A DNA stretch of 64,000 nucleotides from positions 17,071-81,070 of the forward strand of contig JBJENM010000162.1 in the NCBI GenBank assembly GCA_051880175.1. Direction: 5' to 3'. Below the pieces are notes generated by a model. The model saw only the letters and a program-made list of their open reading frames with translations, ran no database searches and was not told the DNA's origin. Positions 3,012-62,601 of this stretch are shown here, piece by piece. Position 1 is the stretch's first letter, and the number at the start of each line of letters is the position of its first letter. A program made the translations under genes and the position numbers. The stretch comes from Agathobacter sp. Lineage in GTDB: Bacteria > Bacillota > Clostridia > Lachnospirales > Lachnospiraceae.

Positions 3012-3035
3012 CCCAGTTCGTATCCATTCTGTTTA

Positions 3036-3215
3036 TCCCTTTTCGGATTTGTGTTCCTAAGAATGAATTTTGCTATTTGAATCAGAACGTTTAAAAAGCG
3101 TCGGCACTTAATGAGCAATTTATTGCGAATTTAGTGCTGCTACGCTTTTTACAAACGAGAGTGGGTTCTGATTCGAATATGCAAATTCATTCGGGAACAC
3201 ATTTCCGAAATGGGA
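3036..3215. repeat. ~180-bp hairpin element (MITE/REP-like), full copy A
   Basis: Long imperfect inverted repeat TTTCGGATTTGTGTTCC..GAATGAATTTTGC / GCAAATTCATTC..GGAACACATTTCCGAAA; near-identical to copies at 5830 and 27113. Confidence 0.9.
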
Positions 3216-5829: not shown

Positions 5830-6010
5830 CTCCTATTTCAGAAAAGTGTTCCCGAGAATGAATTTTGCCATTTGAATCAGAACGTTTAAAAAGCGTCGGC
5901 ACTTAATGAGCAATTTATTGCGAATTTAGTACCGCTACGCTTTTTACAAACGAGAGTGGGTTCTGATTCAAATATGCAAATTCATTCAAAACACTTTTCC
6001 GAAAAGGAAG
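5830..6010. repeat. ~180-bp hairpin element, full copy B, between argC and GNAT
   Basis: Core GAATCAGAACGTTTAAAAAGCGTCGGCACTTAATGAGCAATTTATTGCGAATTTAGT identical to copy A. Confidence 0.9.
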
Positions 6011-8592: not shown

Positions 8593-8940
8593 GAATGAAT
8601 TTGCAAATTTGAATCAGAATTGCGGAATTTGGCATGATTTGAGGTTCTAGAACTGTCGTATACCTAAAATCTTTGAAAAACAGCTTCAAATTGCGGATTT
8701 TTCATGCGAATTGTATTATTTTGAGGAGTGGACTTCGCGGTATACCTAATATTTGCAATTTCTTAGGTACAGGCTAAAATTGATCCGGCGAAAACATACA
8801 ATCGACCATAAAAAGCGCTTAAAATGTCGCTTTTTTCATAAATTTTAGGTACTGGAAGAAAATCAACCAGCGAAATAATACAATTTACCAAGCAAGCATG
8901 AAGCAAAATTCATTTTCAGGAACACAATTCCGAAAAGGGA
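8593..8940. repeat. Hairpin-element termini enclosing an 82-bp-period palindromic motif array (copy F)
   Basis: Begins GAATGAATTTGCAAATTTGAATCAGAA and ends GCAAAATTCATT..GGAACACAATTCCGAAAAGGGA; internal TACCTAA at 8661 and 8743, TTAGGTA at 8763 and 8845. Confidence 0.75.
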
Positions 8941-8945
8941 CTTCT

Positions 8946-22047: not shown

Positions 22048-22115
22048 CTCCCTTTTCGGATTTGCGTTCCTGAGAATGAATTTTGCTATTCGGGAACTCA
22101 TTTCCAAAAAGGGAG
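22048..22115. repeat. Internally deleted hairpin element (copy D)
   Basis: Both termini retained: CTCCCTTTTCGGATTTG..GAATGAATTTTGCTATT joined directly to CGGGAAC..TTTCCAAAAAGGGAG. Confidence 0.85.
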
Positions 22116-27071: not shown

Positions 27072-27112
27072 ATATTACCCTTCTATGCTTTCTGTAAAAA
27101 TATTATATATTA

Positions 27113-27292
27113 CTCTCATTTCGGATTTGTGTTCCAAAATGAATTTGCATATTCGAACCAGAACCCGCTTTCGCTTGTAAAAAGCGTAGCGGTACTAAAT
27201 TCGCAATAAATTGCTCATTAAGTGCCGACGCTTTTTAAACGTTCTGATTCGAATAGCAAAATTCATTCTATGGAACACAATTCCGAAATTAG
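27113..27292. repeat. ~180-bp hairpin element, full copy C (reverse orientation)
   Basis: Reverse complement of the copy A core (TTCGCAATAAATTGCTCATTAAGTGCCGACGCTTTTTAAACGTTCTGATTC). Confidence 0.9.
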
Positions 27293-50955: not shown

Positions 50956-51642
50956 ATGTCAAAATTAAAGAGTTATTTTTCAAAGTCTGAAATCGTTTTA
51001 TGGATAGCTTCTGTAACGGTAATTATAATTTCGTTTTGTACTTTTGACCGAACGAATTATATGATCCTGTGTGCATCTTTGATAGGAGTTACATCTCTGA
51101 TTTTCAATGCAAAAGGGAATCCATTCGGGCAGCTGCTTATGATAGTATTTAGTTTACTGTACGGGATTATTTCATATACTTTTGCTTATTATGGTGAAAT
51201 GATTACGTATCTCGGGATGACAATGCCAATGGCCATATTTTCGTTGATATCTTGGTTAAGGAATCCTTATAATGGAAATACGTCGGAGGTAAAAGTAAAC
51301 AATATTAGTAGAAAAGAAACTTTATACATGTGGATAGGCGCATTGATAATTACGATATTTTTCTATTTTGTATTAGAGCATTTTAATACTGCAAATTTAA
51401 TTCCAAGCACAATCTCTGTTACTACAAGTTTTCTTGCAGCATATTTAACTTTCAAAAGAAGCCCATATTTTGCCTTAGCATATGCTTTGAATGATATTGT
51501 GCTGATTGTATTATGGGTAATGGCAAGCATATATGATATTAGGTATATTTCGGTTGTAGTGTGTTTTGCGGCATTTTTAGTAAACGATATTTATGGTTTT
51601 ATCAATTGGCAAAGAATGAAAGTGAGGCAATATGCAAATTGA
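50956..51642 (+). CDS. pnuC: PnuC-family vitamin/nicotinamide riboside transporter
   Basis: Multi-TM; AKG..GQ, Y..YGE, ND.YGF.NW motifs; AT-rich. Confidence 0.75.
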   Translation: MSKLKSYFSKSEIVLWIASVTVIIISFCTFDRTNYMILCASLIGVTSLIFNAKGNPFGQLLMIVFSLLYGIISYTFAYYGEMITYLGMTMPMAIFSLISWLRNPYNGNTSEVKVNNISRKETLYMWIGALIITIFFYFVLEHFNTANLIPSTISVTTSFLAAYLTFKRSPYFALAYALNDIVLIVLWVMASIYDIRYISVVVCFAAFLVNDIYGFINWQRMKVRQYAN

Positions 51643-51774: not shown

Positions 51775-52039
51775 TTACATATAAACGAAGAAGAATAGAC
51801 GGATTTATCTGTAGCCATCGACCTTTTGGGGATTTGTTTTTTCTTGCATTTACATATAAACAATCAGAAATTATTGAAGTTATATGTAACCTTTGCCTTC
51901 CGAGGAGCTTTTTGGGGCTCGGAATTACATATAAGAGACGAGAAATCAGTGCGCTTATATGTAAGCACCTTCTCTACAGAGGTGCATTTGAGCCAAAAAT
52001 TACATATAAGCGGAGAGAAAGCAGAGTGCTTATATGTAA
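51775..52039. repeat. Array 1: four 75-bp-period units TTACATATAA-N20-TTAT(A/C)TGTA(A/G)-N35
   Basis: Left boxes at 51775, 51850, 51925, 52000; right boxes at 51805, 51880, 51955, 52030. Confidence 0.92.
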
Positions 52040-52107: not shown

Positions 52108-52146
52108 GAAAAAAGGCACTCTCCGGTATGGAGAGTACCTTTTTTG
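52108..52146. terminator. Bidirectional terminator
   Basis: AAAAAGGCACTCTCC/GGAGAGTACCTTTTT stem. Confidence 0.8.
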
Positions 52147-52165
52147 TATTGAAGTGTAAATTCGA

Positions 52166-52306
52166 TTATCGACATCCGCCATGGCAGTTGGTGCAATCCC
52201 CATTACAGGAGGATTTCCCATTTTTCTTATTCCGATATATCGTTCTTACCGCCAGTACAACAATTACGGCAACTATGAGAAGTACAATTGCTGTTCCTAA
52301 ATTCAT
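52166..52306 (-). CDS. FeoB-associated Cys-rich small membrane protein (46 aa)
   Basis: MNLGTAIVLLIVAVIVVLAVRTIYRNKKNGKSSCNGDCTNCHGGCR; below the ORF-track cutoff; RBS AAAGGG. Confidence 0.8.
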   Translation of the reverse strand: MNLGTAIVLLIVAVIVVLAVRTIYRNKKNGKSSCNGDCTNCHGGCR

Positions 52307-52371
52307 AGAATCATGTCCCTTTCTGCTGCAAAATATATTTCCTATTTCCCTTTTTACTTTTGTTTGTCTAT

Positions 52372-52411
52372 GAATGAATTTTGCTATTTAAAATCAGAAC
52401 GTTTAAAAGCG
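52372..52411. repeat. Partial hairpin element (copy E)
   Basis: GAATGAATTTTGCTATTTAAAATCAGAACGTTTAAAAGCG matches the left arm of copy A. Confidence 0.8.
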
Positions 52412-54172
52412 TTATGACTCAATTTTGTGTTCCGGTATATATTTTTTTAGCATCTTTTCCAGCAGCTCCGGTTTTACCGGTTTTGAAATGTAATCTGAAA
52501 ATCCTACCTCTAAATATTCTGCCTCCACACCATTGATTGCATTTGCCGTAAGCATAATAACCGGAGTATCCTTGTTTAACTCACTTTCCTCCCTGATCCG
52601 ATAAAAAGCCTCGATGCCATCCATCTCAGGCATCATGTGATCCATCAAAATGACATCATACTGTTTCTGCTTTGAAAGCCCCAATGCTGCTTCCCCGCTT
52701 AATGCAGTCTCGACCTGTATCTGTGTTTTTTTCAAAAGTCCCTGGATTACCAGCAGATTCATCTGCATATCATCCACCACCAGCACCCGTGCCGTTGGCG
52801 CATGAAACTCTTCCTTGTATTCCTTTGTCTTCTTTACCGCTGATTTTTGGAAGCTTCCCATCGGCTCCGGGTTGATCACACGCTGCGGAATGGTAATTGT
52901 AAAGGTCGTTCCCTTCCCAATCTCACTCTTTACCTCAATCTTACCATTCATCAACTCGACTAAGCTTCTTGTAATAGCAAGACCTAAGCCGGTTCCCTCA
53001 ATGGTACGGTTCTTGGTAATGTCCAGTCTCTGGAAAGAATCAAACATCTTCTCCATATTTTCCTTCGAAATACCTACTCCCGTATCCGTTACCATGATAA
53101 AAAGCTCGATATTTTCAGCGTCAATTCTCTCGAAGTCAATCACGAGATTTATGTATCCGTTCTCCGTATACTTTACGGAATTCGTAAGCAGGTTGGTGAT
53201 AACCTGGCGGATTCTCTGCTCGTCTCCATAAAGCGTTTTCGGAATATTCTGATGATTCTTAATATGAAATTCCAGCCCTTTTTCTTTTGCCCGAAGATAA
53301 ACCATATTGTAGCTGCTGCGGATCACCGACATCACATCATATTCATTGCAGACAATTTCCATGTTCCCTGACTCAATTTTGGAAAAATCCAGAATGTCAT
53401 TGATCAGGGAAAGAAGTGCGCCTCCCGCTTCTTCAATATTTGCAGCGTACTCTTTGATTTCCTCAAGATTATCGGTACGCTTAATCATTTCATTCATTCC
53501 GAGGACTGCGTTAATGGGACTTCGGATTTCATGGGACATATTCGCAAGAAAAGCCTTTTGATAGCTGTTTGCACGTTCTAACTCTTTTTGATTTTCTTCG
53601 AGCTTACGCTGTTCTTCTTTATAGATATTTTTCTGTATGACAACCGTAGTACACATCGCAATGGTCACAATAACCACACTGCCGCAAATACTGATGTACG
53701 CCTGCCTCGGTTGTGAAAATTCTTTGATCAGATCCGGATAATAATAGCTAATCGCATAACATCCCAAATCTATGACAGTTGCAATTCCAATGGCTATCCC
53801 TGCTATTTTTCCATGAAGTGCCAGGGTGATGAAAAACAGTTCATACACAAACCATACGTTTACACCACTATTTATGCCCCCTGCCGTAACCCAGACCATA
53901 GGGATTGCAAAAATGATAAAGGCTACCATAACAATCCTGCCTGCTACACCCCTTTCCTTTTTTTGAGAAATAATCATAACTAAAGGTGTAACAATTACAA
54001 TGATTGCAACTGCAGAAATTCCGGACATCGTAACATTCGCTCCGAAACATATCAGTAGTCCCAAAAAAGCGGCTACACATCCCATAGACATGAACATCGT
54101 TCCGATTCGCTGCTCAATATCCACAGAATGATCATATAGCATTTCTCTTAGTCTAGCCCAAAGATTTTTCAT
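52412..54172 (-). CDS. Hybrid membrane histidine kinase with receiver domain
   Basis: About six TM helices; FLANMSHEIRSP; EGTGLGLAI; VLVVDD..LMDHMMP..ISKP. Confidence 0.93.
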   Translation of the reverse strand: MKNLWARLREMLYDHSVDIEQRIGTMFMSMGCVAAFLGLLICFGANVTMSGISAVAIIVIVTPLVMIISQKKERGVAGRIVMVAFIIFAIPMVWVTAGGINSGVNVWFVYELFFITLALHGKIAGIAIGIATVIDLGCYAISYYYPDLIKEFSQPRQAYISICGSVVIVTIAMCTTVVIQKNIYKEEQRKLEENQKELERANSYQKAFLANMSHEIRSPINAVLGMNEMIKRTDNLEEIKEYAANIEEAGGALLSLINDILDFSKIESGNMEIVCNEYDVMSVIRSSYNMVYLRAKEKGLEFHIKNHQNIPKTLYGDEQRIRQVITNLLTNSVKYTENGYINLVIDFERIDAENIELFIMVTDTGVGISKENMEKMFDSFQRLDITKNRTIEGTGLGLAITRSLVELMNGKIEVKSEIGKGTTFTITIPQRVINPEPMGSFQKSAVKKTKEYKEEFHAPTARVLVVDDMQMNLLVIQGLLKKTQIQVETALSGEAALGLSKQKQYDVILMDHMMPEMDGIEAFYRIREESELNKDTPVIMLTANAINGVEAEYLEVGFSDYISKPVKPELLEKMLKKYIPEHKIES

Positions 54173-54338
54173 GCAATAAGCCTCCTAGCTTTTTTCATTA
54201 TAGCAAACCAAAGAGCTTCAAACAATTTATTTTTTGGTCCTACTATTTTTTCTTATTCTGGGGATATCTTTTATAACCAGATTTGTGATATGATAACAAA
54301 ATAACGTAAAAAAGTATCGTTAAGAGGTTTTATCCGAT

Positions 54339-55178
54339 ATGAAATCAAATAACTCTCACAATCATCAAAAAAAGATTGCACTCATCAATGATTTTAGCGG
54401 ATTTGGGAGATGTTCTATTGCAGTTGAGCTGCCAATCATCTCAAAGTTGAAGGTGCAATGCTGTCCTCTTCCGACTTCCATTTTTTCCAACCACACAGGC
54501 TTTCCAAGTCATTTTATGGAAGACTTTACCCCCAACATGGAAGACTTTATTGCAGAATGGAAGAAGCTCAATCTGACTTTTTCCGGTATCAGCACGGGAT
54601 TCTTAGGCTCTGCTGATCAGATTCGTATCGTCAGCAATTTTATTTCCGACTTTCGGACAAAGGATACCGTCGTTGTTGTAGATCCGGTTATGGGGGACTA
54701 TGGAAAGCCCTATCCCACCTACACAGAGGATATGTGCAGACGCATGAAGGAACTCGTAAAATATGCAGACATCATTACTCCGAATTTGACGGAGGCCTGT
54801 ATCCTTACCGATACCCCGTATAAGGAACAGGTAAAAACTTCAGAAATTTTAGAGCTTGTAAAAAAGCTTTCCGACCTTGGTCCTTCCAAAATCGTTATCA
54901 CGGGAATTCCGCAAAAAAGCTATATCTGCAATTTCTGCTATGAGGAGGGAAAAGAACCTGCTTTCGTGAAAACCCATAAGATCGGACAGTCCCGTTCCGG
55001 AACCGGAGATATTTTTGCGGCCATCATCTCTGCGGATGCTGTAAATGGCATACCTTTTTATGATTCCGTAAAAAAAGCGTCTCTGTTTATCAAGAAGTGT
55101 ATTCTAAGTTCTATTGAACTGGATATTCCCCTTACAGACGGGGTATGCTTTGAAGAGGTTTTGGATAAATTGAAGTAA
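54339..55178 (+). CDS. pdxK: Pyridoxamine/pyridoxal kinase
   Basis: DFSGFGRCS, SNHTG, VDPVMGD, ITPNLTEA, GTGDIFA motifs. Confidence 0.88.
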   Translation: MKSNNSHNHQKKIALINDFSGFGRCSIAVELPIISKLKVQCCPLPTSIFSNHTGFPSHFMEDFTPNMEDFIAEWKKLNLTFSGISTGFLGSADQIRIVSNFISDFRTKDTVVVVDPVMGDYGKPYPTYTEDMCRRMKELVKYADIITPNLTEACILTDTPYKEQVKTSEILELVKKLSDLGPSKIVITGIPQKSYICNFCYEEGKEPAFVKTHKIGQSRSGTGDIFAAIISADAVNGIPFYDSVKKASLFIKKCILSSIELDIPLTDGVCFEEVLDKLK

Positions 55179-55245
55179 CTACCATTTTTGATTTAGATTC
55201 CAAATTCAGAGAAAAAAATTATTATACATAAAAAGGAGATTTTCC

Positions 55246-55860
55246 ATGAAAAAAGAAATGACCATTGTATATAAAGTACATAACAATTTGTATGTAAATC
55301 TGACCAACCGCTGTTCCTGTGCCTGCACCTTCTGCTTAAGGCAGACCAGAGATCACATGGAGGATTCCAATTCCCTCTGGCTTTCCCATGAGCCATCCTT
55401 TGAGGAAGTAAAAGAGGCATTTAAAGCCTTTGATGTAGCTTCCTATGATGAAATCGTCTTCTGCGGATTCGGAGAACCTACCGAGCGCTTTGATCTGATT
55501 CTTGAAGTATCCAAATATTTAAAGGAAACCTATCACAAGCCAATCCGCATCAATACCAATGGTCAGGGCGATTTGATCAACAAGCGCTCCATTGCCCCAA
55601 AGATGCAGGGACTTATCGATACCGTATCCATCAGCTTAAATACTCCGGATGCTGCAAAATATCACGAGCTTGTCCGCAGCGAATTTGGTGAAAAAGCCTT
55701 TGATGCAATGCTTACCTTCGCTAAGGAAGCCCGAAAGTATGTACCAAACGTGGTTCTTACCACCGTTGCAACCACTCTGACACCGGAGGAGGAAGCCGCA
55801 TGTCAAAAAATCTGTGATAATCTTGGTGTTACCTATAGAATACGCCCGTGGGAAGACTAA
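55246..55860 (+). CDS. Radical SAM protein (TatD-associated / TIGR04100-like)
   Basis: LYVNLTNRCSCACTFC, VFCGFGEPT, RINTNG motifs. Confidence 0.85.
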   Translation: MKKEMTIVYKVHNNLYVNLTNRCSCACTFCLRQTRDHMEDSNSLWLSHEPSFEEVKEAFKAFDVASYDEIVFCGFGEPTERFDLILEVSKYLKETYHKPIRINTNGQGDLINKRSIAPKMQGLIDTVSISLNTPDAAKYHELVRSEFGEKAFDAMLTFAKEARKYVPNVVLTTVATTLTPEEEAACQKICDNLGVTYRIRPWED

Positions 55861-55900
55861 TCCCACAGGCGTTTATTATTTCGATTACTTTATGGAATTC

Positions 55901-56272
55901 CTACTGAAGGTCTGATAAATTGATTCTATCATATGCCCCATTTTTCGCAGCTTCCGGATGAGGTTCCAGACCTATTATGGTAATCTCATTTTGATTTGGT
56001 CCATATACCCAATACATCCTTCTAGCTCCGCTTTTTTTGTTTTCCAAATAGGACTGCCACACTTTCATTCCATATCTTTTTGATAACGGCTCGATCTCAT
56101 GTGTATTTAGGCTTGGATATTGTGGATCACTCGATAATTTTTTGAGTGCATTTCCCCATTTCTTATATAATTCTTTGTCTTTCTTGCTTATTACACCACT
56201 ATGGTAGCTTTCCTGTAAATTATTCCACAGCATTTCCATCTCTGGAATCCCCATTCGTATGTTAAATGACAC
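55901..56272 (-). CDS. RelE/ParE-like toxin
   Basis: L..DPQYPSLNTH, ARRMYWVY, ITIIGLEPHP; directly downstream of a small antitoxin-like gene. Confidence 0.65.
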   Translation of the reverse strand: MSFNIRMGIPEMEMLWNNLQESYHSGVISKKDKELYKKWGNALKKLSSDPQYPSLNTHEIEPLSKRYGMKVWQSYLENKKSGARRMYWVYGPNQNEITIIGLEPHPEAAKNGAYDRINLSDLQ

Positions 56273-56284
56273 AGTAATCCTCCA

Positions 56285-56524
56285 CTAGAAATCGGATAAA
56301 TCGATTGCAGGAGATGCTTCCCCTAATTTAAAATTGCTAATTGCTCTATCCATATCATCTAAGGTTCGAGCTGAAATGCTATCCGGAACAGTTAATTCCC
56401 TCGGCTCAAGTATAATACATCCATTATCATATTCCTTAACATTGTAATATTGATACATTGCGCCTCTGAGCGTAACTCTTTTTTTATTATCAATATGAAC
56501 TGTGTAATCTTTTACTGCTGTCAT
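56285..56524 (-). CDS. AbrB-like antitoxin
   Basis: HIDNKKRVTL..NGCIILEP swapped-hairpin pattern; acidic tail; RBS GGAGG. Confidence 0.62.
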   Translation of the reverse strand: MTAVKDYTVHIDNKKRVTLRGAMYQYYNVKEYDNGCIILEPRELTVPDSISARTLDDMDRAISNFKLGEASPAIDLSDF

Positions 56525-56674
56525 GATTCTTTCCTCCATAGCGTCAGGTGGGATATCCTACTTAATATTATAGTATACACTCTAATAGAATCTGTCAATA
56601 AAAAAGAATTATTCATTTGTTTAGGGCAAACCTTATTTCAAGACAGCCGGCTTTCAAAATAGTGTTATGAAATA

Positions 56675-57352
56675 TTATCTTCTCCAAAATGGCTTCTTTT
56701 CCGGTTCAACGTAGACCGTATTCTCTCTATATCGCTCAATAAAGTTCGGATCAAACTTCTCCAGCTCTTCTTTTACCCAAGTGTTCAATGTGTAGGAGCC
56801 AGTTCCCATTTCAAACCAATTGATAATATCCCAAAAAATTGTTGATATTACTAAAAGTTCGATAGGTACGTCTTCCTTTGTATAAAACGTGTAAGTCGTT
56901 TTTACTCCATACTTTTTATGTAGCATAATCTCTGCAACAAGCTCTTCATTCCGATAAATGCATAGATATATCCCACCTTTGTGGCCAAACCCTACCTGAT
57001 ACTGTGAATACACATTTCCGTCTTCCCAGTAAACTTCTGTGATTCCAATGCCATCAAAAAGATGTTTCCCTCTTTTAATACATTGATAAATCATTCTGTC
57101 AGCTTGTCCATCTGACATAATTGTCGCAGCTTCACCCTTGAATGTAATATTATCTTCTGTAAACTTCTTTTCGTATACATTTTTCACGCTAAGAAAATAA
57201 TTCTTTGAAAATCCTTCTAATGAAAAACCCCCACTATGATCGCTATCAAGTCCTTTTCGTGGATACGCTTTTCCCAGTAGCTGACCACCTCTTGTTAGCT
57301 GATATTCATATTCCCCCGCCCCAACAAGCACTCGCTCAAACAAATACTCCAT
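56675..57352 (-). CDS. Hypothetical protein, AT-rich
   Basis: 225-aa ORF with RBS AGGAGG; no recognised family. Confidence 0.75.
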   Translation of the reverse strand: MEYLFERVLVGAGEYEYQLTRGGQLLGKAYPRKGLDSDHSGGFSLEGFSKNYFLSVKNVYEKKFTEDNITFKGEAATIMSDGQADRMIYQCIKRGKHLFDGIGITEVYWEDGNVYSQYQVGFGHKGGIYLCIYRNEELVAEIMLHKKYGVKTTYTFYTKEDVPIELLVISTIFWDIINWFEMGTGSYTLNTWVKEELEKFDPNFIERYRENTVYVEPEKKPFWRR

Positions 57353-57432
57353 ATTCTTAATCCTCCTAAATTTAATCTTCTTCCACCATCATCTTTTGTG
57401 TGCAGTTCCACAATACCTCATGGAAGAGAGAG

Positions 57433-57696
57433 CCACATATAATTCAACCATTTCTTCACTATTTATCTGTATTTTTTTGTCCAGACACAGCCTATAAAAG
57501 TGGCAGCTTACATATAAGGCAATCAGTTTTTCTTTATTTATCTGTAGTTTCCGGTCAAATCGCAGTTTTAAAGAGCAACAAATTACATATAAGTCTAACG
57601 CATTTCTCTCCTTTATCTGTAATTCATATCCCAAATGCACTTTCCAAAGGCAGAATCCTACGTATAAGTTCTCAAATATTGCTCCCTTATCTGTAA
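57433..57696. repeat. Array 2: four 75-bp-period units, inverted relative to array 1
   Basis: Left boxes at 57433, 57508, 57583, 57658; right boxes TTATCTGTA at 57463, 57538, 57613, 57687. Confidence 0.9.
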
Positions 57697-57762
57697 AACG
57701 AATACTTTGACCGATACATTCCACAAAGCAGACTGTCTTCCCCCTCTAAACTACAAACTGTT

Positions 57763-60700
57763 CTAATCAATATTGTACTGTATTTTTTCCAACTCACTTA
57801 ATTCTTCGAAGGGATACTGCTCCTTCGCATCCTCAAGAAGCATTTCCAGTGTCATGTACGGGAATCGGTAAAGCTTGGAATAGTAATTTACATATACAGT
57901 TTCATGCTTTGGCATATAGGCGATTCCATTTTCCACAACCTCCATCAACCCGTAATCCGCTGCATTTAAAATCAATAGATTGTCATATACATCAAGGGCA
58001 ATGGTGTTGTATTCCTCATATCGCTTGATATCTACTACCGTCGGATATTTTTCCTTTGAAATATGCGCAAATTTTTCATTCTCCAAATCAAAGATACGGA
58101 AATAGCCGTCATCTCCCTGAAGCGCAAGCCTCGTATCATTTTCTATGAACCGGATAAAGCAGTCCTGATAGCTGTTGAAGGTAATTTCGTGCAGAACGGT
58201 ATAATCTGTCGTATCCAGTATCCGAAGAGTCTGATCCATACAGCAGATTGCAAGCATGGAGCCATCCTCTGATACCGCAAGGGTCTGATCCGACAGCATG
58301 GATATCTGATACTCATCACACACCGTTTCCTTTTGTCCTGTGGTAAGGTCAAACATGTCCACCCCGCCATCCGAATTTACCGCATACGCATGGTCATAGT
58401 CCTTTGCAAAAGTCCAGGATGTCGTATAGGCGACCTCCTTGTTGGTACTGTATAAAATCTGCTGTCCCGGCAAATCTACGACTACCAACCGGTGCTCTCC
58501 GTTATCCTCGCAGAAAAGCACCTTGCTATTATCTGTAGATAACACCACCTCCAGATTTTTTGCATCTTCCATGGCGCAAAACTCTGTCGCAGTCCCAGCT
58601 TCAAGATCCATAAAAGTAATGATTCCATCATTCTGCACACATGCAAAATGACTGTCATCGATAAATACCGGCTGGCATTTGTAATATTCCGTATCACATT
58701 CCCAGTCTAAGAGGAGTTCATCCGAATCGGTCTTATAGAGAAGATATTCGACGGAATTACTAAGATAGTTTGGAGCTACAACATAATAGGTTTCTTCCGG
58801 GGAAGTGTACATATCACTAATTGTTTTCCCGTAATCCTCCAGCAGCTTTAGACCTTTTCCCTCATGATACTTATAGACATAAAGCTGTGTATCTGCCAGA
58901 GAACGAATGGTCACGACGCCTCTCTGTACTTTCATCTGGGAAATGTGAACCCCCAGATCATAGGTGCTTCCATACTGACTCGTTCCCTTGGTAAGATTAT
59001 AGATTTCCAATTGCCCATCTGCCTCTCCGAAGAAGCAAAAGCCTGAGCTTTGGGCAACAAGTACTTCATTGACACTTGAGCTTGCCGTTTTTTCTGCGAT
59101 AAGCTCGCCGGTATAGATATCAAAGGCATTTATGGTCTGTCCACCCGTTACAATCAGACTGCTTTCCATTTCTCCTGTTACTTCGCTCTCATAGGTATGG
59201 GCATTCATTTTCACCGAAGAACTTGCCTGATTCTTAAAATCATTTGCCCATGCGCAAAGTCCATCCTCCAATCGATACATTTCCACATGGCTGTAGTTCA
59301 TATCATATTCCATATAAAAATCATCATAGTTGTAGGCCCGTGCGGCAACTGCAACCATCTGTCCATCCGGTGCAAAACGGATATCCTGAATATAATTATA
59401 GTCAGAAACAATTACCTGCTTTTCCTTCGTTTCCCGGTCATAGACCGTAACATAGCCATGGGTATCCCCCAACTCGTCGGTTCCGATGCCAGTATTCAAA
59501 TGACCTAGTGCCACCTTACTTCCATCCATGGAAACCGCCACATTGCTGGTAAATGAAAAAACGATTTCATTTGTGATTTCATCCGTAATGCTTCCGTCCT
59601 TCAAATCCACAACATCTGCCCATTTTCCGCCATATACCAGGGCGATTCCGTTTGCTTCATCGATCTTGCAGTAGGAAACATAACTCATATCCACCTTCCA
59701 GACCAGTTCTCCGTTTTCATCTACGGAACGAATTGAATTACTATCACACACAATCGCATTTCCTTCGTACATTCCCACGGAAACAACGTTCTGTTTTGAG
59801 CCATAGCTGTCCTGTTGTACCGGAATGGTCAAAAGAAGGGACAACTCTTCTGCGTCCCACACATAAACCAGATCCGCAGAATCTACGGAAATAATTCTTG
59901 TAGTGTCATCGCTCATGGCAAAATCCTTTACATTCAGATTGTGGCGAATTAAACCATCCAATCCGATTACATTTCCGGTATCATATGCATTCAATGCCTG
60001 AGAGAGCGCATACTGGGCCTCTGCTACATAGGGTCTGTCATTTTCCTCGGAAGGAAGGGCAGAAAGAGCGATCAGTACAGCTGCACGGCGGTCTCCCTCC
60101 TCCAACACAGAAAGCGAGGTATCTGCCAGATACTTCGATTGGTTTTCCAGTTTTCCTTCGTAATTCTGCTGAATCAGCTTTGCATTATATGCACTGTATG
60201 CACCAAAGGTAATACCAAGGGCTGCCGCTGCGACTGCTGCAGAAGAGACAATGGCCGCAATTTTCTTCATCCGGCGCTCTCTGTGGCGCTGTCTTAAATC
60301 ATCAAAACTGCAGCCCAAAATCGGAGCAGCAAGACGCAGAAGCTCCATTTTCATTTTCTTATTTATTTCTTTTTTGCTTGTGCCCCGGACATCTGCCGCC
60401 AGAGGCTCTACCTTTCTGCCATTCTCATCCACGAGAAGCTGCTGTGGAAAAGATTCGTTCGGCTCCCCTTCTATCAAAATAGCAAGCACACGTTCCCTTC
60501 CATGCATGGAAATAAAGGTAGAAATCTCCGTCTGCACCCAATAGGACTGTGGTGTTCTCGGAGAACAGATGACCAGCAGATATTCCGCCTCCTGCAATGC
60601 GCCTGAAATATTGTCTCCGAGATCACTTCCGATGGGAAGCTCCTCCTGATCCCGGAATACTCTCTGGATTTTCTTTTTTCCGGTCTTTTTTGCAACCGAC

Positions 60701-60798
60701 CGGGGAACCTTGAAGGTTTCCAGTCCTTTATGTATTTTCTTTGCAATATACATATCCAGCTCAGAATGCCTGTAACTGATAAATGCATCATATCTCAT
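57763..60798 (-). CDS. TIR domain - TM helix - WD40-like beta-propeller protein
   Basis: YDAFISYRH, VFRD, LLVICSP..SYWVQTEI; hydrophobic helix after RQRHRERRMKK; repeats such as SMDGSKVAL, FAPDGQMV, SEDGSMLAI. Confidence 0.85.
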   Translation of the reverse strand: MRYDAFISYRHSELDMYIAKKIHKGLETFKVPRSVAKKTGKKKIQRVFRDQEELPIGSDLGDNISGALQEAEYLLVICSPRTPQSYWVQTEISTFISMHGRERVLAILIEGEPNESFPQQLLVDENGRKVEPLAADVRGTSKKEINKKMKMELLRLAAPILGCSFDDLRQRHRERRMKKIAAIVSSAAVAAAALGITFGAYSAYNAKLIQQNYEGKLENQSKYLADTSLSVLEEGDRRAAVLIALSALPSEENDRPYVAEAQYALSQALNAYDTGNVIGLDGLIRHNLNVKDFAMSDDTTRIISVDSADLVYVWDAEELSLLLTIPVQQDSYGSKQNVVSVGMYEGNAIVCDSNSIRSVDENGELVWKVDMSYVSYCKIDEANGIALVYGGKWADVVDLKDGSITDEITNEIVFSFTSNVAVSMDGSKVALGHLNTGIGTDELGDTHGYVTVYDRETKEKQVIVSDYNYIQDIRFAPDGQMVAVAARAYNYDDFYMEYDMNYSHVEMYRLEDGLCAWANDFKNQASSSVKMNAHTYESEVTGEMESSLIVTGGQTINAFDIYTGELIAEKTASSSVNEVLVAQSSGFCFFGEADGQLEIYNLTKGTSQYGSTYDLGVHISQMKVQRGVVTIRSLADTQLYVYKYHEGKGLKLLEDYGKTISDMYTSPEETYYVVAPNYLSNSVEYLLYKTDSDELLLDWECDTEYYKCQPVFIDDSHFACVQNDGIITFMDLEAGTATEFCAMEDAKNLEVVLSTDNSKVLFCEDNGEHRLVVVDLPGQQILYSTNKEVAYTTSWTFAKDYDHAYAVNSDGGVDMFDLTTGQKETVCDEYQISMLSDQTLAVSEDGSMLAICCMDQTLRILDTTDYTVLHEITFNSYQDCFIRFIENDTRLALQGDDGYFRIFDLENEKFAHISKEKYPTVVDIKRYEEYNTIALDVYDNLLILNAADYGLMEVVENGIAYMPKHETVYVNYYSKLYRFPYMTLEMLLEDAKEQYPFEELSELEKIQYNID

Positions 60799-60986
60799 AA
60801 CAAATTTATCCTCCGTATTGCAAAAGGGTTATTTTTCCCGTTGTTACAACAAAACTGTATCATTGCCCCAAACATATTTCAACAAAAAAATAGACAGCCA
60901 TTACTCTGACTGCCTACCCGAAAATACCTTCTGGATACAAGATGCCTATATATTCATCACACTACCAAACGGTAATAAGTTCCTTA

Positions 60987-61487
60987 TCATAATTTGTCTC
61001 CTTTAACACTAATTTTTACTGTTTCACCAATCCGACAATCTTCATATTCCTCTCTTTCAAGGTAGAATATGCTGACATAGTCATTTTCTATAACCCGACC
61101 TCGTACAGGATAAAATGTTGATACATTTGTTCCTGGCGAAAGTGTCTGCACAATAATATTCTCAGTTTCAAATTTTTCTTCCACCAATACCTCAAAATAA
61201 TATTTGCGCCTAACAGCTTTTATATCCGTTCTATCAATATCTTCATATAGGACAATCAGAAAAATCATAAACACTATTACAATATATGAAGGATATGCTA
61301 CCGATTTTACAAATATTGCTAAGAGTATTGCAGTAACCAAAATCAATAAAAATATACTACGTCTTTTATTTTGTTTTTTCTTATATTGCATCTCTTTCGT
61401 TTTTAATTCCTTCGCAGTATACTTCTTAATATAAAGATTTTTCTTATCCTCTTCTGTAAAATATACTTCTTCACCTTCACGTATCAT
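60987..61487 (-). CDS. Hypothetical two-TM membrane protein, AT-rich
   Basis: 166-aa ORF with two hydrophobic helices and a beta-rich C-terminus; start uncertain. Confidence 0.65.
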   Translation of the reverse strand: MIREGEEVYFTEEDKKNLYIKKYTAKELKTKEMQYKKKQNKRRSIFLLILVTAILLAIFVKSVAYPSYIVIVFMIFLIVLYEDIDRTDIKAVRRKYYFEVLVEEKFETENIIVQTLSPGTNVSTFYPVRGRVIENDYVSIFYLEREEYEDCRIGETVKISVKGDKL

Positions 61488-61578
61488 ATACTTACCATGC
61501 TTCAGAATATTGCAAACTTGAAATTCTACAATTTATTTGACTTGCATAACTACAAACTGTTGCTGCATCTAGTTTCAT
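61463..61578. repeat. ~115-bp direct repeat, copy 1
   Basis: CACCTTCAC..ACCATGCT.CAGAATATTGCAA..TGAAATTCT..TGCATAACTA..TTGCTGCAT, shared with 62141-62255. Confidence 0.85.
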
Positions 61579-62083
61579 GTTTCTTCTCCCCTTTGAAATA
61601 TCTTAGATAATTCTTCATCTAATTGGTATTTCTTTGTATTATATATATGGTATATTTCATCAGAATTTCCTATATATACGACATAGCACTCGTCTCCAAC
61701 TTTTAATAATTTTTCATATTTTTGAAGAACCATCGTATAACTTCCATCCCAAAATTTAATTCTACAATTATTATCAAACATTGCATTATTTAAGATTTCA
61801 ATACGTGCCACCTTTTTTATTACAATTTTCATATTGCCTACTTTAATATTATGAATCAACTTACTCATAGACAAAATTTTTCTAATTCCCCAGAAAACTG
61901 CAATAAACCAAACCGCAACTACTATAAGTACAAACTCCATTACACCCCCAATCATCTGAAAATTTGTTTGTCTCCATGCAACTAAAATAAAAAAATACCT
62001 ACAATTGTAAATATATATCCAACTGCTAAATTAAAATAACACTGGCCTTCTGCCAAAAGAGTTTTCTTTGATATTTGTTGCAT
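61575..62083 (-). pseudogene. Two-TM membrane protein frameshifted in a T-run
   Basis: RBS GGAGG + ATG at 62083 (MQQISKK..) reaches TAG after a T-tract; one extra T joins it to ORF 61575-61955. Confidence 0.7.
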
Positions 62084-62140
62084 TTTAATCCTCCAAAAGA
62101 ATATCCAATTCAACATTTTCTATTTCACCGAACTCTATGT

Positions 62141-62255
62141 ATACCTTGCACCTTCACATACCATATAGTCACCATGCTCCAGAATATTGCAATTCTGAAA
62201 TTCTGCAACTGATTTGATCTGCATAACTATATACTTTTGCTGCATGTAGTGCCAT
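62141..62255. repeat. ~115-bp direct repeat, copy 2
   Basis: Aligns with 61463-61578. Confidence 0.85.
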
Positions 62256-62601
62256 ATTTTATTCTAAATGACTATTTGCAATCACTATTCCTATATTTTT
62301 CAATAAATGAAGGATCGTATTTTTCTTTCAAAACTCGAACTACGCAACTTTGGAAATAATCTCCGTCATCTGTCTCTATTTTAATAATATATGTTCCACT
62401 AAACTTTGCAACTATTATTAATAGTACTATTTTCCCGGCAAGTACTCAACAAATATACGAAAGTAGATTTAATAATTCGTCATTCAATAATTCGTATTGC
62501 TTCAAATGAACCTAATGATAAGAGTAATGAATGTATGGTTTCCCCATATGAAAAACAGCCTATACCTAATAATTTGAAAATATTAGGTACAGGCTATTTT
62601 A

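Follow-up and report, generated by a model that had tools for sequence, protein, structure and literature searches.

A phased intergenic array beside a TIR gene and the predicted nuclease-fold family that is its probable partner

What are four evenly spaced repeat units doing between a TIR gene and a gene of no recognised family, and what might read them? The question is raised by a 64,000-nucleotide stretch of an Agathobacter sp. genome (the window), a stretch that is also contained in animal-gut sequencing runs. The array beside the TIR gene (array 2) has a counterpart (array 1) elsewhere in the window. A first inspection of the letters had taken the two for inverted, in-register relatives that may mark sites of gene acquisition or rearrangement (the original prediction).

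The arrays and their dispersed family

The unit of array 2 consists of a 10-nt arm, a 20-nt loop (19 nt in the last), the inverted 10-nt arm and a 35-nt linker. The arms carry the word TTACA[T/G]ATAA and the loop has a polar GAAA core. This four-unit geometry, including the shorter last loop, was reproduced exactly where the original prediction had placed it (Table 1). A scan of positions 57250-57900 gave no promoter- or terminator-like site. Contigs of two sequencing runs lack both array 2 and the TIR gene, and contigs of three runs show a deletion inside the array (Table 1) which, being out of register, we read as decay.

Table 1. Arrays, genes and repeat elements considered here (window positions unless a contig is named; units of array 2 are numbered along the minus strand)
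Feature	Position	Strand	Remarks
Array 1	51775..52039	plus	four units behind pnuC, geometry of array 2
Array 2	57433..57696	minus	four units, period 75, unit starts 57433, 57508, 57583, 57658; gene-less member of the dispersed family
Array 2, unit 1	57658..57696	minus	19-nt loop
Array 2, unit 2	57583..57622	minus	
Array 2, unit 3	57508..57547	minus	
Array 2, unit 4	57433..57472	minus	outer arm degenerate; 80 bp before start of 225-aa gene
Deletion inside array 2	57500..57680	n/a	181 bp absent from contigs of three other runs
TIR + beta-propeller gene, 1011 aa	57763..60798	minus	GC 0.44; upstream neighbour of array 2, outside the element
225-aa gene, no family match	56675..57352	minus	GC 0.38; downstream neighbour of array 2, variable region
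PnuC-type transporter gene	50956..51642	plus	GC 0.32; upstream neighbour of array 1
~190-bp element, copies	3035-3215, 5831-6007, 27111-27289		
~190-bp element, fragments	8593-8619, 8902-8941, 22049-22090, 52344-52412		
P0001 gene, 264 aa	G000:C162:12419-13213	minus	behind comEC, ~3.9 kb before window position 1
Longest array, 6 units	G000:C162:13310-13724		directly upstream of P0001

Array 2 belongs to a larger family. The 2.58-Mb draft of the source genome (G000, 69% complete) holds 56 units in 13 arrays and 4 singles, and 37 of the 39 unit spacings are 74-75 bp (75 in 31 cases, 74 in 6, 76 and 65 in one each). Two shuffled genomes yielded 2 units and no spaced pair each, so the family is not a product of chance. 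All 13 arrays are intergenic, and several lie between housekeeping genes, such as ftsY-smc and recA-trxA (names read from translations) and hemD and an ECF gene. The dispersed four-unit family that had been proposed is thus indeed dispersed, and its unit number is looser than claimed (3 to 6, mostly 4). Two simple readings were discarded: a coding repeat, as ORFs across the arrays have no Pfam match and the arrays differ by 1-nt indels, and a control element specific to the TIR gene, given 13 loci with unrelated neighbours.

How the arrays relate to one another is best seen in their variable segments. In five arrays, array 1 included, these segments are 0.60-0.71 identical in register and at most 0.51 when shifted (purine-rich strand), and two further arrays pair at 0.74. 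Being most alike in register, the five arrays show that whole four-unit blocks were copied with unit order kept. Array 2 is no such copy of array 1. Its segments match those of array 1 at 0.39 in register and 0.37-0.50 at any shift, against a family background of 0.42, 0.27-0.33 for shuffles and 0.16-0.28 for the opposite strand; that is, the in-register value is the family background, and the claim of unit-by-unit alignment falls. The two similarities on which it had leaned do exist (linker 1 with linker 3 of array 1, loop 2 with loop 4), with a shift of two units. The segments are, as had been argued, diverged homologues rather than acquired spacers: they share a consensus, and array 2 had no match among 50,697 phage records. 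A comparison of the variable segments with the rest of the genome likewise gave no convincing match.

Orientation, neighbours and strain variation

The purine-rich loop strand of array 1 is opposite to that of array 2. Of the 12 scoreable arrays (the 13th lies at a contig end), 11 point the same way as their upstream gene, and the window arrays are opposed because each runs with its own upstream gene. Orientation linked to the replichore was rejected, since three arrays keep to the direction of their upstream gene where the local strand bias runs the other way. Nor did an inversion bounded by the arrays, also suggested originally, find support. The interval is colinear in two relatives, with 52144-55879 forming one block (92%) in G365 and 52411-55862 one block (77%) in G448, each in line with the downstream flank, and none of 15 listed joints (of 67, in contigs of four runs) changes strand.

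The broader proposal, that arrays mark sites of acquisition or rearrangement, fares better once inversion is removed from it: each of the two window arrays sits at or inside DNA that relatives and strains lack or have replaced. G365 lacks 25583-52143 and 56844-62528 at the window-array junctions, and G448 lacks 55863-57755. One strain contig matches from the first arm of array 1 onward, after 2.9 kb of other DNA. As for base composition, both arrays had been said to border AT-rich genes, which holds for the 225-aa gene and pnuC and does not extend to the TIR gene (Table 1). Across the genome, an AT-rich neighbour occurs at 5 of 13 arrays versus 26% of 391 gaps, and this enrichment is not significant (p 0.23).

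Several further features of the neighbourhood were recorded. The segment 25583-52143, ending at array 1 and absent at the matching G365 junction, is a 26.5-kb sugar-utilisation region. Positions 55880-62530 form a hypervariable strip behind a sugar dehydrogenase gene, in which the TIR gene, the array, about 1.3 kb of extra DNA and AT-rich genes are gained/lost between strains; a 111-bp direct repeat lies at 61472 and 62149. At 55874-56673, a minus-strand module of two genes (84 aa and 123 aa, neither with a Pfam or NCBIfam match) is skipped in three runs, with 6 bp at the joint that fit both sides, and we take it to resemble a toxin-antitoxin pair. The TIR protein combines its TIR domain with a transmembrane-like segment and long beta-propellers, has no NTPase match, and its G448 copy is in pieces. 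In addition, a second dispersed element, roughly 190 bp in length and carrying long terminal inverted repeats, is much commoner than the array family (306 loci in G000, 82 of them near full length), with many copies in G365 too and no Rfam family near cut-off. It occurs within 400 bp of 4 of 13 arrays versus 10% of random positions, a comparison not matched for intergenic location.

A predicted nuclease-fold gene and its arrays

The longest array of the family stands directly upstream of a gene, P0001, in a neighbourhood of comEC, an XRE gene and an MFS gene. The linkers of this array are the most alike in the family (0.58 versus 0.41). P0001 has no match in Pfam or NCBIfam. Its structure model (pLDDT 91, from 18 sequences) has an N-terminal helical hairpin carrying a three-strand sheet at residues 34-60, in the order strand-strand-strand-helix. 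For the C-terminal domain, the top Foldseek rows are PD-(D/E)XK proteins (Bax1, DrdV; best E 0.004, none at or below 0.001). A second fold comparison, in which most rows are helical-hairpin matches to residues 1-99, places I-Bth0305I, Bax1 and TnsA at Z 8.3-8.5, and the PADLOC PD-DEXK model matches at E 3e-5. The family has an E-H-x-G-x-x-D motif (EHxGxxD), and 121-123 of the 123 sequences share S158, E161, P191-D192, E207-H208 and G210, the acidic residues E161, D192 and E207 among them. On the basis of the model and these matches, P0001 is predicted to be a PD-(D/E)XK fold protein.

The family is widespread. It is present in 13 of 41 relatives and in 98 of 301 sampled genomes of the host's taxonomic family, and one protein search returned 1745 sequence clusters. 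Phage or plasmid carriage was rejected: close relatives were not found in viral contigs, and a search of phage collections and plasmids gave 2 unannotated phage-collection records and 3 domain-only plasmid matches. An unverified 4.2-kb phage-collection record (L227) holds a full-length homologue at 31%.

Do these genes have arrays of their own? A detector of phased arm-loop-arm units within 700 bp of a gene, its threshold set after earlier analyses, was applied to 117 homologue loci (the best-scoring part of all homologue matches). Arrays were detected at 73 of them (61 upstream, 17 downstream) and at none of the other 44, compared with 7 of 200 control genes of G000; six of those seven were examined, and all six carry words of dispersed families. 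A metagenome replicate found arrays at 31 of 60 loci, some of them redundant (of 80, at least 500 bp upstream being required).

The words themselves differ from gene to gene. The exact motif is confined to G000 and G014 among 41 relatives, and to 3 of 151 genus genomes; G014 has an 87% P0001 orthologue with the array upstream. Within G000, two of the three P0001 paralogues have a dispersed word of their own. The C79 paralogue has an upstream array with the word TACATAC (period 53-54) and 12 clusters, 5 of 17 having been dropped as cross-matches to the first family, and the C147 paralogue has one with ACAGTA (period 52) and 4 clusters. The C69 paralogue shows two loose units by eye and no dispersed cluster in G000. 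When five words were compared with five genomes, each matched its own, and the sole off-diagonal hit was one single unit. Two of the five (G068 and G235) are dispersed as arrays; the other three are not, bar one single unit.

The association can also be approached from the motif side. Scanning the species collection with the motif alone yielded 58 loci in 20 genomes. In 7 of these genomes a family gene adjoins the array, namely the 87% orthologue, a frameshifted gene and others at 39-40% identity, three of them in records titled Treponemataceae. Whole-genome search of 14 of the 20 (one among the 7, one examined earlier) added one genome with the same word and two with near variants. Altogether, 8 genomes have a same-word gene, 2 a near variant and 10, mostly draft assemblies, none that was found; this tally leaves out two full-length G474 matches. 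Given these findings, we regard it as very probable that the arrays are the cognate sites of the P0001 protein family.

Some observations stand beside this pattern. In L239, L240 and L281, titled Treponemataceae, the same arm word adjoins a family gene with a different loop length, and this sharing suggests interphylum transfer or convergence. G000 contains more phased arm-loop-arm arrays at C28:19549 (CTCACT, period 48), C161:15748 (TCAGCC, 53) and C155 (ATTGAC), for which no cognate gene was found in the incomplete assembly. A TGGGTG family of 6 clusters also had no cognate gene found in G000; a gene with a TGGGTG array adjoins the gltD-region site in G365.

Genes and arrays also turn over together. 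What stands at the comEC site varies: a different nuclease (28%) with its own, different array (period 52) in G365, a third nuclease (43%) in G024 and a broken gene in G448. In G000, two arrays bracket the nuclease and XRE genes, and all of this is replaced together in G365. Between ftsY and smc, G448 and G014 have a short gap with no array, and G365 has another element. Two G000 arrays are common to G365, a genome (89% complete) with 38 units in which no close P0001 orthologue was found. At the C52 site, G365 shows a near-precise absence with a single arm kept, which looks like decay. No sharp empty site, sharp end or target duplication was found at the compared sites.

How the arrays may be read and spread

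The periods of the arrays bear on what kind of site they are. The 73 arrays have modal periods of 51-54, 61-64, 70-76, 81-85 and 91-94, and 70 of 73 are no more than 2.5 bp away from a multiple of 10.5, a zone that takes in half of the allowed values (kin are not independent). The best-fitting step is 10.45 bp. Across 111 units, arm compensation is missing at positions 1 and 6 (p 1.0) and weak at position 5 (p 0.04, units not being independent). Array 2 folds no better than its shuffles (z -0.47 as RNA, +0.43 as DNA), and an Rfam search of the arrays returned no family near cut-off. We therefore rejected a structured RNA. Helix-quantised periods and the lack of a hairpin signal together point to double-stranded binding sites.

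Which part of the protein would read the word? Among the 73 pairs, motif likeness is 0.93 above 70% protein identity (2 pairs), 0.50 at 55-70% (29 pairs) and 0.34-0.38 below. Nearest neighbours are more alike than background (0.47 versus 0.35, p 2e-4), with a Mantel r of -0.125. The arm word thus tracks the protein weakly overall, and the columns most tied to it are S40, Q45, K198 and N41. Four distant proteins found by motif, on three branches of the tree, rank 1, 2, 4 and 7 of 119 in likeness to P0001 over residues 34-62, versus ranks 29-62 over residues 63-264; ranks 3 and 6 over residues 34-62 have ACATATA-type arms too. A further same-word lineage ranks 33 of 116 over that stretch, and residues 101-150 give a partial motif signal similar to that of 34-62. 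The N-terminal beta-sheet is possibly the word reader; we assume that it resembles integrase arm-binding domains. A model of the isolated N-terminal domain (pLDDT 62) had no Foldseek match, and DUF6788, seen on 14% of one related Atlas cluster, is no more than a lead for the N-terminus.

With the longest array in front of P0001, and a separate, differently spelled array at most of the examined relatives of this gene, the likely explanation is a hitherto undescribed enzyme-plus-repeat system, one that spreads repeats through gut-bacterial genomes. Array 2 would then be a gene-less copy: on balance we favour a course in which P0001 binds the inverted arms on double-stranded DNA and cuts, and repair copies blocks behind genes. 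As in REPIN/RAYT, though with another enzyme and substrate, the activity of the family, here as a nuclease, would probably be what spreads the arrays. Specifically, a dimer would hold two arms 30 bp apart through the beta-sheet (residues 34-62) at the tip of the helical hairpin, and in-phase units would line these dimers up along a single face of the helix. Recombination would begin at nicks or breaks, either at the edges of an array or close to the polar GAAA core, and repair by the host would then place copies of array blocks at new positions behind genes. The evidence for this reading comprises the dispersed family, the gene-array association, the per-gene words, the quantised periods, the ordered block copies and the swaps of gene plus array. 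Against it stand the lack of a sharp empty site, the orphan motif genomes, the 44 of 117 homologues without an array, the three of five tested arrays that are not dispersed, the weak Mantel r, the signal at residues 101-150, the same-word lineage at rank 33, the middling fold scores and the likeness of the nuclease domain to candidate defence proteins.

Other explanations have to be weighed. The arrays could be transcribed and cut into guide or scaffold RNAs for the nuclease, as in CRISPR/TIGR, a view that draws on arrays upstream of and in line with the nuclease gene, on orientation with the upstream gene in 11 of 12 arrays and on variable segments of fixed length. But those segments share a consensus and are copied as blocks, those of array 2 match no phage record and none convincingly matches the genome, and neither excess folding (z -0.47 and +0.43), arm compensation (missing at 2 of 3 variable positions) nor an Rfam family near cut-off speaks for RNA; the periods are also quantised by the DNA helical repeat, and we consider guide RNAs quite improbable. 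Helical phasing, which is strict, and dyad symmetry would suit sites for an unrelated host DNA-binding protein (a nucleoid or replication factor), with the nearby gene a coincidence, and orphan genomes do exist. Such a protein would hardly account for at least three words coexisting in G000, each beside its own paralogue, or for a motif found in just 3 of 151 genus genomes, which makes this account highly improbable.

Defence deserves more attention. That is, P0001 could be a restriction-like or abortive nuclease of a defence/addiction module, with arrays that hold, silence or titrate it and dispersed copies as decoys or by-products. Its C-terminal domain matches the PADLOC candidates PDC-S68 (E 2e-23) and HEAT_CxxC_PDDEXK, although these matches span only a 110-residue nuclease domain of much larger proteins. 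Arrays lie just upstream at 61 of 117 loci, like operators, some are not dispersed, and genes are swapped rapidly at fixed sites. Yet no methyltransferase or other defence partner was found at the locus, the 54 viral motif loci are single units with no arrays, and the ordered block copies go unexplained, so we hold this explanation to be unlikely. Another account sees the arrays as passive recombination marks of mobile cassettes in which the nuclease is a frequent passenger; they would come in with accessory genes and favour gains, losses and swaps through homologous recombination. It fits the position of both window arrays at or in variable segments, the strain contig whose match starts at the first arm of array 1 and the joint replacement in G365 of the arrays that bracket the nuclease and XRE genes. 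However, the arrays at ftsY-smc, recA-trxA and hemD-ECF have no cargo gene, AT-rich genes are not significantly enriched, and a passenger would have no reason for its own word per paralogue or for recovery by motif alone in another phylum. Passive marks are therefore improbable in our judgement.

Beyond the reading in which P0001 copies arrays, a bolder one is possible, and we put it forward tentatively: a widespread class of self-propagating DNA, so far undescribed, in which a small nuclease recognises a short word through an interchangeable beta-sheet, assembles on phased arrays of inverted arms and, with no transposase involved, copies arrays or the gene-array cassette behind transcribed genes, several orthogonal enzyme-word pairs occurring per genome. 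If true, it would amount to a natural library of more than 1000 nucleases whose recognition words can be read next to their genes.

How does such a system compare with known ones? REPIN/RAYT and TIRtrons also have an enzyme gene flanked by cognate repeats dispersed between genes (10.1101/2021.07.10.451892; PMC3733652), and REPIN/RAYT shares with P0001 the presence of several gene-repeat pairs per genome and repeats that persist and erode after gene loss. The enzyme differs in those accounts, with an HUH/Y1 tyrosine in RAYTs and a predicted PD-(D/E)XK fold in P0001, as does the repeat: a REP is a hairpin, whereas a P0001 unit sets its two arms 20 nt from each other, shows no hairpin signal and recurs at periods of 5-9 helical turns. 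Moreover, RAYTs are described as vertically inherited (10.1101/2021.07.10.451892; PMC3733652), unlike the P0001 family, which spans phyla and in which one gene takes the place of another at a single site when close relatives are compared.

The predicted catalytic fold leads to other comparisons. I-Bth0305I, an EDxHD homing endonuclease with a Vsr-like catalytic fold, scores level with Bax1 and TnsA (Z 8.5, rmsd 2.9 Å over 90 residues). It is a stable dimer in contact with as much as 60 bp of pseudo-palindromic DNA (PMC3239194); the dimer proposed above rests on analogy with it, and it offers a model for the 40-bp unit. Both proteins have a separate N-terminal domain, although the helical hairpin and beta-sheet of P0001 are unlike that of I-Bth0305I. 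P0001 differs from EDxHD endonucleases in its EHxGxxD motif and its free-standing intergenic gene with no intron/intein host, and its putative sites adjoin the gene as arrays whereas EDxHD homing sites are interrupted by it. The predicted fold of P0001 is TnsA-like as well (Z 8.3, rmsd 3.4 Å over 114 residues). The ends of the transposon Tn7 are arrays of protein-binding sites. Unlike Tn7, the P0001 locus has no TnsB/TnsC, and terminal inverted ends and target duplication are absent at the compared sites. BOX and BIME are modular intergenic repeats that gain or lose whole units, a behaviour matched by the exact loss of one 75-bp unit at the nuclease array in one run. Unlike them, the P0001 arrays have an identified cognate gene of predicted PD-(D/E)XK fold, and the arm word changes with the gene.

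A periodic array beside a nuclease gene also recalls CRISPR, whose periods of 60-79 nt include the 75 bp of array 2, while the periodicity of TIGR/VIPR is 18 or 5 nt (10.64898/2026.10.21.760802). Here, each unit has two inverted 10-nt arms and two homologous variable segments, unlike CRISPR, and no cas family occurs among 13 window proteins and 20 array neighbours. Family periods of 51-94 differ from those of TIGR/VIPR, and neither P0001 nor the array neighbours match a Nop domain. With homologous segments, no cas match among the scanned proteins and the wrong periods, CRISPR, TIGR and VIPR were rejected as identities. A search of open PMC and bioRxiv text found no published description of the array-nuclease system, nor do two recent language-model surveys describe it in the parts that bear on it.

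In the published accounts considered here, every dispersed-repeat system whose enzyme is known relies on an HUH tyrosine transposase that acts on hairpins (10.1101/2021.07.10.451892; PMC3733652), and so a double-strand, helix-phased PD-(D/E)XK version would be a second way to build one. Since the probable target is spelled out next to each gene, direct tests of binding, cleavage and the recognition code are possible, and the many specificities could be mined for tools. Ultimately, the findings link common, unexplained phased intergenic arrays of gut Clostridia to one family of hypothetical proteins.
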